A stretch of DNA of 64,000 nucleotides from Oligoflexia bacterium (GTDB taxonomy: Bacteria > Bdellovibrionota > UBA1018): assembly GCA_963758495.1 (NCBI GenBank), contig CAVWVI010000001.1, positions 32,001 through 96,000 of the forward strand, given 5' to 3'. Below the pieces are notes generated by a model. The model saw nothing but the letters and a program-made list of their open reading frames with translations. It had not been told where the DNA came from and did no database searches. This document shows positions 2,033-3,109 of the stretch, piece by piece (the first letter of the stretch is position 1; the number at the start of each line of letters is the position of its first letter). The position numbers were made by a program, and so were the translations under genes.

Positions 2033-3109
2033 ATGCTAATAAGCGCTATGTTTTATAAATTAATTATATTAATAATAACTTTGGTTTCATTCGAAAGTGC
2101 TGCATTTTGTGCAGGTCGAGGTTTGCAAACTGAGAAATTACATTCAAATAATGAATTTAATCCACATTCGGCACGTATTAATAAACTCATGAATAGAATT
2201 CATGAGGCAGAAGGTTATTGTGTTTTTAGTGACGAAATAGTCATGATTCCCGAAGATGATCATTCTGAATCACCCTCTAAGCATTCCGAAAGCATTGAGC
2301 CTTCGAACACGGTTGTGTCGAATCAACACCTAGCTAAAATTTCTTCGGCTTTTGCGTCGACCCTTTTTTCATCTTTAGTGACTTATCCTCTTGATGTCAT
2401 AAAAAAGCGAAGCCAATTCAATACCTCACAACAGGGGCAATGGTTCAAAGGAAGTGGCGCTCACGCAGCTGCCATGTGTTTTTCTGTAGGGATAGGGATG
2501 TCTACCTATGAGGTATTAAAAGGTGAGCAGTGGTCCCCCTTTGCGGCTGGGGTTGTGGGTACCTTGTTAGCAAATACGACTACGACTCCCTTGTGGGTTT
2601 TTCAAGTCCGTACAGCCATGGCACCGGAGAAGCAGCCCTATAAAATCTCCCACTTTCTGAGAGATATCAAAGCACAACCTAAAACAGCCTTTCGAGGACA
2701 ATATGCCAACTTGCTTTCATTGGGGCCGCAGGCTGGATATTATCACTTGTATGAAGAATTTAATGATTTGCTCAAGCGCTCTATGAATCCTTCAGAACCC
2801 CCCTCAGGGAATTCCTCAGAGTCGTCTGATGGAATGTTGAATGAGATGGGTCAGCATGCACTGGCAGCAGGGAGTGCCAGAATTCTGGTCTTGATTCCTT
2901 CTTATCCTATAGATACCCTTCGGCTTCATCGCCAACAATATGGGACCTCTTATTCTGAAATTGCGCAAAAAATGCTGACTGAGGGCGGAGTTGCCAGATT
3001 TTACCGAGGATTTTTTTGGGCTACGTTAAGAGGTGCTGCTGGAACAGCGGTTTATATGGGTTTCTATCAAAAATTGAAAAAAAACATCGAGTCTTTTGAG
3101 GTAAACTAG
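2033..3109 (+). CDS. Secreted mitochondrial carrier (SLC25/MCF) family protein
   Basis: Three repeats: YPLDVIKKR..WFKG, TPLWVFQVR..AFRG, YPIDTLRLH..EGGVARFYRG; N-terminal signal peptide and polar linker. Confidence 0.9.
   Translation: MLISAMFYKLIILIITLVSFESAAFCAGRGLQTEKLHSNNEFNPHSARINKLMNRIHEAEGYCVFSDEIVMIPEDDHSESPSKHSESIEPSNTVVSNQHLAKISSAFASTLFSSLVTYPLDVIKKRSQFNTSQQGQWFKGSGAHAAAMCFSVGIGMSTYEVLKGEQWSPFAAGVVGTLLANTTTTPLWVFQVRTAMAPEKQPYKISHFLRDIKAQPKTAFRGQYANLLSLGPQAGYYHLYEEFNDLLKRSMNPSEPPSGNSSESSDGMLNEMGQHALAAGSARILVLIPSYPIDTLRLHRQQYGTSYSEIAQKMLTEGGVARFYRGFFWATLRGAAGTAVYMGFYQKLKKNIESFEVN

Follow-up and report, generated by a model that had tools for sequence, protein, structure and literature searches.

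Mitochondrial carriers are treated as eukaryote-only proteins, the textbook bacterial exception being an injected Legionella effector, LncP; the question is therefore what such a carrier is doing behind an export signal in an Oligoflexia bacterium of the phylum Bdellovibrionota. The gene concerned lies at positions 2033..3109 (+) of a stretch of 64,000 nucleotides (contig CAVWVI010000001.1 of assembly GCA_963758495.1, positions 32,001 to 96,000), called the window throughout, and encodes 358 residues from an ATG start in an intact frame with no internal stops. A preliminary description, made from the letters of the window alone, had read the product as a three-repeat carrier preceded by a signal peptide and a polar linker of ~75 residues, and had proposed a eukaryote-derived effector aimed at host organelle membranes. 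We find that the protein is a true member of the mitochondrial carrier family (MCF, SLC25) and that its gene is a long-resident bacterial one. We rate the chances as about even that it is a eukaryote-derived nucleotide or cofactor exchanger which has been refitted for the bacterium's own inner membrane, with its N terminus facing outwards.

Membership of the family is confirmed by profile and by predicted fold. Pfam PF00153 (Mito_carr) matches the protein at E 2.2e-25 and 88.7 bits (cut-off 22.3) in three stretches, as had been expected, the best of them in repeat 3 (residues 272-352) and the one in repeat 1 covering only model positions 6-40. The same profile matches no other frame of the source genome and none of 14 control bacterial and archaeal genomes. 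NCBIfam gave no family match for the protein, and comparison by sequence with the Protein Data Bank (PDB) gave weak matches only, to a GTP/GDP carrier (E 8e-5) and to UCP2. An AlphaFold2 model built on a 72-row alignment (mean pLDDT 80.9, pTM 0.72) has a helix at residues 2-25, a low-confidence region to about residue 92 and six long helices across residues 93-357. When this model was compared with the PDB by Foldseek, 13 matches were obtained at E ≤ 0.001, every one a mitochondrial carrier. The best was UCP1 (8hbv, E 4e-8), and a Tetrahymena complex-IV-associated carrier and the yeast and bovine ADP/ATP carriers were also matched, with TM-scores, normalised on the target, of at most 0.69. Structures of the carboxyatractyloside type (c-state) fit the model better than does the bongkrekic-acid state.

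That the gene belongs to the bacterium is equally clear. Eukaryotic contamination, which the preliminary description had named as a possible undoing of its claims, or a chimeric contig would be suspected on the grounds that MCF proteins are typical of eukaryotes and that reads gave no confirmation over the gene. The read check, on one soil-metagenome run holding 0.08 of the sampled words, yielded two 151-base unitigs at 1526-1842 and left the gene uncovered, which is uninformative either way. The GC content of the gene, 0.422, is that of the genome, and its third-position value of 0.370 compares with a mean of 0.365 over 1510 long open reading frames, at the 59th percentile. The contig measures 578,263 bases within a 3.66-Mb genome of five contigs (92.1% complete, 2.1% contaminated), and Pfam identifies the genes flanking the carrier as an AI-2E family transporter and two hybrid histidine kinases. 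Because composition is native, flanks are bacterial, homologues occur in two other bacterial contexts and the signal peptide is in the genome's own style, contamination can be set aside as having practically no probability, and the native composition further indicates long residence in the bacterium.

Proteins of this kind are rare. A word-indexed search of 5.8 billion proteins matched the query only to itself, and a profile search of word-indexed proteins returned 10, of which one had an informative name (an S-adenosylmethionine carrier-like plant protein, E 5e-13), while the ESM Atlas offered generic eukaryotic carrier clusters only, at scores of 0.88-0.89. An exhaustive HMMER run against 1.84 billion cluster representatives matched 212 proteins at E ≤ 1e-3; a threshold of 1e-10 retained 16 of them, and one of 1e-30 retained 10. 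P0018 (E 3.6e-10) is followed by generic single-repeat carriers at E ≥ 2e-9, and the ten best matches beyond the family bear mixed names or none (for example 'citrate transporter' and 'mitochondrial carrier protein'). The family, here called type A, is represented by an alignment of 17 sequences, comprising the query, P0003-P0017 and the full gene of genome G239 in place of its truncated call P0018; G000 is the source genome and the G-numbers stand for the other genomes compared. Ten type A clusters that were looked up have one or two members each, come from metagenome sources only and are unnamed or called 'hypothetical protein'. Signature 1 of the carrier fold is nevertheless intact in 14 and signature 3 in 15 of the 17, and on this alignment type A is a rare family under constraint that the literature has not described.

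Its distribution is patchy and its position in the genome is not fixed. The query protein detected type A in 2 of 75 genomes of the bacterial family (G000 and G239), and a class-wide search with the 17-sequence profile matched 3 of 127 genomes, strongly in two and weakly in the third, G407 (E 7e-4), where the match falls in the frame of a different carrier gene described below as type B. Of 401 genomes sampled from the phylum, 5 gave a match to PF00153 itself, and of 100 sampled from its largest family none did; the spread of type A beyond the searched phylum is known only from unnamed protein-library sequences. One of the five, a weak match in another family of the phylum (G044:C64:20704-20958, E 5e-6), lies in a frame of lipoprotein-like character that has QS repeats, and is probably spurious. 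The closest homologue, P0152, is 40% identical and is carried on a metagenome contig beside an Hsp70-like gene, an unknown gene and a short-chain dehydrogenase/reductase (SDR), followed by gidA-gidB-parA-parB-bactofilin-atpFHA. Compared with the source genome, the proteins of that contig are 91% (AtpA), 83% (bactofilin), 81% (ParA), 74% (GidA), 68% (ParB) and 50% (GidB) identical, which by these values makes it a close bacterial relative in which the carrier stands at a different genomic place. The G239 homologue (25% identity, E 2e-19) has beside it two signal-peptide proteins (L018:7984-8808 - and 10245-11054 +) with no G000 homologue; the genes enclosing it are 79% and 59% identical to genes of G000, and the region is in other respects syntenic with G000 C4:~450 kb. 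No conserved neighbours were seen, the three type A members with context having unrelated flanks. From the different places, the patchy spread and the low identity relative to housekeeping genes, it follows that the carrier gene is old and yet accessory, fast-changing and mobile.

At the level of the repeats, some traits of the family are kept and others are lost. The preliminary description claimed three Px[DE]xx[KR] signatures; those of repeats 1 and 3 are canonical, whereas that of repeat 2 has not only the W already pointed out but also Q for K/R, which had gone unmentioned. Matrix helix h12 is missing from repeat 1, with a 13-residue loop in its place, and h34 and h56 are present, as judged from both model and sequence: the model helices of repeat 1 occupy residues 93-129 and 141-164 with none between, and those of repeat 3 occupy residues 267-303, 307-324 and 327-357. 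The loop has 13 residues in 11 of the 17 type A members and at most 23 in 16, so that its shortness is a family-wide trait. The [FY][DE]XX[KR] cytoplasmic network is intact on H2 (YEVLK), has lost its base to N on H4 (YEEFN) and its acid to Q on H6 (YQKLK). On the even-numbered helices, substrate contact points presumably follow the G of [FYW][KR]G by seven residues. In that assumed register the three points of the query are A, S-L and R, and G-L stands at the second in its closest relative; the third, at the R333 position, is R or K in 15 of 17 members.

The N-terminal extension was likewise described correctly, as hydropathy, family conservation, the model helix at the N terminus and the low-confidence linker behind it agree. 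The signal peptide was assigned from its hydropathy, from its conservation in the family and from its likeness to the signal-like N termini of the genome's ankyrin proteins. The best 9-residue Kyte-Doolittle (KD) mean is 3.66, at residue 10; the segment ends SAAFCAG, and an n-h-c organisation with small residues at -3 and -1 can be made out by hydropathy and eye. Fourteen of 17 type A members have a 9-residue window with mean KD ≥ 2.0 within their first 38 residues, and two more (1.96 and 1.79) look signal-like by eye, which leaves P0017 as the exception to 16 of 17. Most of these 16 signals end in an aromatic and then a small residue (AFA, AFG, FAG, WAG, ALG), and since the ankyrin N termini of the genome end likewise, in [SA]-[FYW]-[AS], the carrier signal is native in style. 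A lipoprotein reading of Cys26 was rejected, as F stands at -1 and the Cys is absent from relatives, and an algal bipartite plastid signal as the source of signal and linker was set aside in view of the same match to the genome's own N termini. The linker is predicted at pLDDT below 50 over residues 20-43, 55-66 and 68-84. Its net charge is -6 in the query (75 residues scored) and negative in 15 of 17 type A members, and its length is 48-94 residues in 16 of 17. Counterparts of a short Cys-acidic motif within it were recognised by eye, not by formal count, in P0003, P0004, P0005, P0006, P0009 and P0016 among others. On these comparisons the export signal is a conserved, lineage-typical novelty of the type A carriers. 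Two cysteines, Cys62 (window 2216-2218, in the linker motif) and Cys149 (2477-2479, on H2 near the putative binding site), recur in many relatives, and a periplasmic disulfide or a plug is conceivable.

The distribution of charge suggests how such a protein would lie in a membrane. In type A, the matrix-side loops have a K+R density of 0.176 and a net charge of +7.7 per protein, compared with 0.052 and -1.5 for the outer loops, which in the query contain no K or R and four D or E. By the positive-inside rule, a signal followed by a translocated acidic segment and such a pattern of loops gives an N-out/C-out protein, and the basic matrix loops together with the acidic linker therefore argue for an N-out/C-out arrangement with the matrix loops in the cytoplasm. 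A signal, a periplasmic segment and a polytopic domain are also the layout of ordinary bacterial membrane proteins such as E. coli DsbD.

The ankyrin proteins just mentioned are themselves unusual in number. Ank_2 has 85 matches in ~32 frames of the source genome, one of them in the window at 50492-51880 (-), and at E ≤ 1e-12 there are 44 matches compared with 0-8 in 15 genomes of the same family, G239 having 3. Signal-like N termini are present in 29 of the 32 distinct ankyrin frames as against 43% of 2334 frames of at least 200 residues by the same crude test, and groups of near-identical paralogues occur (for example at C4:926-935 kb, C5:0.9 kb and C4:1006 kb). By this test the set shows a large, apparently Sec-exported repertoire of eukaryote-like repeats.

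Where the carrier came from, and what it might transport, was approached through a quick IQ-TREE phylogeny of 84 rows with long branches, in which carriers were sampled and not drawn from a curated SLC25 reference set. The 17 type A sequences form one clade (SH-aLRT 99-100), which is sister to a group of 12 rows (SH-aLRT 90, branch length 0.081) bearing the names SLC25A32 mitochondrial folate transporter (two clusters), 'adenine nucleotide transporter 17' (two clusters) and 'peroxisomal adenine nucleotide transporter 1'. The comparison with SLC25 subfamilies called for at the outset thus groups type A with SLC25A32 and SLC25A17/Ant1-type carriers, if weakly. As the clade is nested among eukaryote-type carriers, transfer from a eukaryote is favoured, and a eukaryotic origin of the type A carriers is plausible. 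The W of repeat 2, which the preliminary description took as a mark of nucleotide and cofactor carriers, points the same way. It is present in the second signature of 14 of 17 type A members and of 8 of 55 other MCF proteins, and all eight lie within the 12-row sister group. A published account, in the portion available (PMC8231866), gives W for the first acid of the second signature as a rare mark of Ndt1p/Ndt2p (nicotinamide adenine dinucleotide, NAD+), Flx1p (flavin adenine dinucleotide, FAD), Rim2p and SLC25A33/36 (pyrimidine nucleotides). Together, the W and the contact-point pattern would fit nucleotide-type substrates, and this, with its weak phylogenetic support, is the best available lead on the substrate. 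The source genome has metK, nadE, purH, folP and pyrF. Across the genomes searched for these genes (10 for metK, purH and nadE, 5 for folP and pyrF) there was no pattern of auxotrophy tied to the carrier. The purH gene (PF01808) is present in the source genome and the larger family genomes and was not found in 5 of the 10 family genomes, namely G239, G008 and G323 (3 of 3 of genus g9), G004 and G020, all of ≤ 2.8 Mb; the smaller-genome members of the family may have lost purine synthesis.

A second carrier in the same bacterial family bears on the history of the first. This very divergent form, type B, occurs in G008, G239, G323 and G407 (genus g9, sister genus within the same family), and no further instance came up when 185,579 species genomes were scanned by pattern. 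Over one repeat it shares ~22% identity with type A, and it has degenerate signatures (EFPAEN, APIEKSK, LPLANLR); all four proteins have a signal peptide and an acidic linker in the same layout as type A. The two types are not sisters in the free tree. An approximately unbiased (AU) test does not reject one clade (p 0.579), the constrained tree being 3.7 log-likelihood units better, and the signal may have been gained early after a single acquisition or convergently after two. The metagenome-assembled genomes with type B are labelled Bacteriovoracaceae bacterium (two), Bdellovibrionales bacterium and Oligoflexia bacterium. Bdellovibrionota is the phylum known for preying on bacteria, and Bacteriovoracaceae is placed in it by NCBI; from the labels of these relatives only, we infer a predatory lifestyle for the lineage of the source genome.

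How the carrier might serve the bacterium's own inner membrane can be set out as follows. The N-terminal Sec signal peptide would bring the nascent chain to SecYEG and the acidic linker would cross to the periplasmic side. The carrier helices, six in number and weakly hydrophobic, would then insert with both termini periplasmic and the three basic matrix loops cytoplasmic, an orientation that would be the same as in mitochondria, the periplasm corresponding to the intermembrane space and the cytoplasm to the matrix. Once inserted, the carrier would exchange an adenine-containing nucleotide or a dinucleotide-type cofactor (NAD+, FAD, folate, coenzyme A, adenine nucleotides), and the cell would gain ready-made compounds reaching its periplasm, for example from prey. 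In this scheme the cleavage of the signal, the membrane of residence, the direction of transport and the substrate are predictions. For a six-helix protein, a strongly hydrophobic Sec signal at the N terminus ordinarily leads into the cell's own inner membrane, and the very N terminus is by far the most hydrophobic segment of the carrier. The known membrane effectors described in an excerpt of PMC12981334 carry C-terminal signals and are moderately hydrophobic; sufficiently hydrophobic segments go to the inner membrane via the signal recognition particle (SRP), which most effectors escape. Yeast carriers are functional in Lactococcus membranes, and lactococcal signal peptides improved the expression of some of them, according to the part of PMC8961550 at hand. 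In the source genome (92% complete) no VirB4 was found, nor the type VI secretion sheath protein VipB. A search for DotH was also blank, which counts for little since its control matched nowhere, and of three secretin genes none scored above the type III cut-off.

Several observations nevertheless weigh against residence and import at the inner membrane. With all five biosynthetic genes present, there is no evident need to import S-adenosylmethionine, NAD, purines, folate or pyrimidines. There are gaps in the salt-bridge networks (W and Q on H3, N for K/R on H4, Q for the acid on H6), and the conserved linker of 48-94 residues with its recurring Cys-acidic motif would have no role there. The type A helices are less hydrophobic than those of 55 other MCF proteins, with a six-helix mean KD of 0.39 vs 0.61 and top six windows of 1.01 vs 1.22 (Mann-Whitney p 5e-6, a value overstated as the sequences are kin); this is the opposite of an adaptation to lateral insertion by Sec and fits a translocation-competent protein. 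The patchy spread, the three unrelated genomic places and the fast divergence (40% identity where AtpA has 91%) suggest that the gene behaves like an accessory, host-interaction gene. If these features mean export, the destination would most naturally be the inner membrane of prey and not eukaryotic mitochondria, because the lineage is one of bacterial predators. The chain would leave by Sec without being released sideways, would be kept as carriers crossing the intermembrane space are kept, bound to chaperones, and would be passed outward to insert from the periplasmic side into the prey inner membrane, whereupon prey nucleotides and cofactors would flow out. Such a protein would be the bacterium-against-bacterium counterpart of LncP. 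We regard this as unlikely; that a carrier so planted would drain the nucleotide and cofactor pools of the prey into the feeding compartment of the predator we likewise count among the improbable outcomes. No route is known to us by which a Gram-negative cell could release a six-helix alpha-helical protein once Sec has exported it, nor an insertase for it in the prey. The predatory lifestyle of the source genome is drawn only from its relatives' labels, and functional insertion of carriers in bacterial membranes is documented, so that low hydrophobicity is no bar to retention in the cell's own membrane. In favour of export, the moderate hydrophobicity of the helices is of the kind described for secreted membrane effectors (PMC12981334, in the same excerpt), the gene is patchily spread, non-syntenic and quickly diverging, and the G239 gene adjoins the two signal-peptide proteins lacking a G000 homologue. 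The conserved linker motif could serve targeting, no auxotrophy accounts for an importer, three secretin genes are present, and a carrier inserted from the periplasmic side would have its native orientation. Predators do modify the cytoplasmic membranes of their prey, according to the accessible text of a review (PMC13689555).

Delivery to a eukaryotic host, with the protein ending in an organelle (mitochondrial) membrane as LncP does, is the proposal with which the analysis began. It draws on the eukaryotic type of the carrier in the tree, on the precedents in Legionella and Neorickettsia reported in the part seen of PMC3252375, and on the exceptional set of signal-bearing ankyrin proteins, which could mean a eukaryote-facing secretome using the Sec route. 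Eukaryotic derivation thus survives as plausible, whereas targeting of host organelles finds little support: the relatives are labelled as members of a phylum of bacterial predators, the signal is of the Sec type, and the searches for VirB4, DotH (whose control was blank too), the type VI sheath protein and a type III secretin above cut-off disclosed no injection system. Getting a polytopic protein out of the cell would, moreover, be the same problem as for delivery to prey. In B. bacteriovorus, an ankyrin protein with a signal peptide acts in the periplasm as a self-protection factor (PMC4686830, as far as the portion available goes), and the other type A carrier genome, G239, is poor in ankyrins with its 3 matches; for these two reasons the ankyrin expansion is indecisive. 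We hold a eukaryote-directed effector to be very improbable. Somewhat apart from the matter of location, the carrier fold might no longer be a strict exchanger and could instead be a uniporter, a leak or uncoupler-like protein, a scaffold or a slowly decaying relic. The loss of h12 would fit this, as would the finding, by motif reading, that one of three matrix salt bridges is intact and the cytoplasmic network weakened, the rank of UCP1 as best structural match, and the want of a Shine-Dalgarno motif or promoter call. Decay is countered by the frame, which is intact without stops and native in codon composition. Moreover, conservation of the binding-site R, of the [FYW][KR]G motifs and of two signatures among the 17 diverged sequences indicates selection on a carrier-like function, and genuine carriers of the W clade likewise do without the first acid of the second signature (PMC8231866, same portion). 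A lapse from strict exchange is accordingly judged distinctly unlikely.

The coordinates of the carrier gene and its parts are collected in the table, together with the type B genes. In the AT-rich spacer, read directly over 1714..2032, no Shine-Dalgarno-like motif precedes the ATG at 2033 or an alternative ATG at 2048, and a promoter scan placed no + strand site within it; the scan gave 4 sites vs 5.4 expected from shuffles, hence no excess. The downstream neighbour is a hybrid histidine kinase gene (3143-4948, -), and as it is convergent with the carrier gene, the latter forms a single-gene unit. Elsewhere in the window, a possible integrated element spans 17591-22580, where two genes of the phage-integrase family (17591-18523 and 21234-22580) enclose one for a PMT-type glycosyltransferase (18477-19820, -), one for a SEC-C-motif protein and a BtpA-family gene; positions 11683-11766 (-) are occupied by a tRNA gene. 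A 1144-residue protein at 38185-41619 (+) has an Ntox21 toxin domain at its end (E 8e-27) and is directly followed by a DUF3885 protein (41622-42173, +), a pair that looks like a polymorphic toxin with its immunity gene. A protein of 153 residues at 28653-29114 (-) carries a eukaryote-style RNA recognition motif (RRM_1, E 5e-21), and an insertion-sequence-like pair at 52855-54212 (-), consisting of a DDE_3 endonuclease and an HTH_32 protein, adjoins an EamA transporter and an ankyrin gene.

Table. Parts of the carrier gene in the window and locations of the type B genes in other genomes.
Feature	Residues	Position	Strand	Basis or content
AT-rich non-coding spacer, ~320 bp, upstream of carrier gene		1714..2032	+	Sequence reading
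Sec-type signal peptide	1-26	2033..2110	+	n-region to K9, h-region LIILIITLVSF, c-region ESAAFCAG
Polar, net-acidic linker, ~72-75 aa	27-99	2111..2329	+	Predicted disordered
Linker motif YCVFSDEIVMIPED	61-74	2213..2254	+	Counterparts C..[DE]DI.[IV].E in relatives
Carrier repeat 1	100-164	2330..2524	+	H1, PLDVIK, 13-residue loop, WFKG, H2
Signature PLDVIK, repeat 1	119-124	2387-2404	+	Direct reading; canonical
Carrier repeat 2	165-251	2525..2785	+	H3, PLWVFQ, matrix helix, AFRG, H4
Signature PLWVFQ, repeat 2	186-191	2588-2605	+	W for acid, Q for K/R
Outer loop H4-H5, acidic, serine-rich	252-266	2786..2830	+	pLDDT blocks 75/70
Carrier repeat 3	267-358	2831..3106	+	H5, PIDTLR, matrix helix, FYRG, H6 with conserved R333
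Signature PIDTLR, repeat 3	292-297	2906-2923	+	Direct reading; canonical
Stop codon of carrier gene		3107..3109	+	Sequence
Type B genes		L004:1258-2337, L006:1345-2328, L007:1348-2331, L017:853-1887 (-)		One per genome

What the carrier would mean depends on where it resides. If it works in the bacterium's own membrane, a eukaryotic organelle transporter would have been domesticated by a bacterium, and a candidate would be at hand for the uptake of intact nucleotides and ATP that Bdellovibrio is said to perform (reportedly in work by Ruby et al. in 1985 and by Ruby and McCabe in 1986). Type A cannot be the general answer to nucleotide uptake by Bdellovibrio, since the 100 genomes from the largest family of the phylum contained no carrier. 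If exported instead, it would be a new kind of prey-directed weapon. Were its destination the membrane of prey, it would be the first case of a bacterium placing a transporter in the membrane of another, and a candidate for how Bdellovibrio-like predators tap the cytoplasm of their prey.

Among related systems is LncP, an MCF protein of Legionella, a Dot/Icm organism, that is secreted during infection and acts in host mitochondria, as set out by Dolezal et al. (2012) in the part available of PMC3252375. One paper on Babela massiliensis also contains the term 'mitochondrial carrier', and we found no description in the literature that links such carriers with Bdellovibrionota or Bdellovibrio. 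Like LncP and the other MCF proteins of Legionella and Neorickettsia, the present protein is encoded by a bacterium, was presumably acquired from a eukaryote and has a probable substrate of the nucleotide type; unlike LncP, it has an N-terminal Sec-type signal and an acidic linker and belongs to Bdellovibrionota, and neither VirB4 nor DotH was found alongside it. The proposed job, moving another cell's nucleotides or cofactors across the bacterium's own inner membrane, is that of the NTT/Tlc transporters of Rickettsia, Chlamydia and plastids (PF03219), but these constitute an unrelated family of 12 helices. PF03219 had no match in the source genome, a weak blank as its control search matched nowhere. 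In its W, its neighbours in the tree and, in the assumed register, its small-plus-aliphatic second contact point and R at the third, the protein resembles the W-signature carriers (Ndt1p/Ndt2p, Flx1p/SLC25A32, Rim2p/SLC25A33/36) and SLC25A17/Ant1. It differs from them in sharing only ~20-23% identity, in the absence of h12 throughout type A, in the query's Q for K/R and in a signal and linker that are foreign to those carriers. A further parallel is with the yeast carriers engineered for Lactococcus lactis, in which a bacterial signal peptide was likewise placed ahead of a carrier (PMC8961550, in the part at hand). There the arrangement is a laboratory construct, whereas in type A it is natural, conserved in the family and extended by an acidic linker of 48-94 residues; should the carrier indeed reside in its own cell's membrane, it would offer a natural design for inserting carriers into bacterial membranes that has so far been engineered by hand. 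By the comparisons made here, type A is a distinct clade of bacterial carriers in Bdellovibrionota that joins a mitochondrial carrier to a native Sec signal and an acidic linker.

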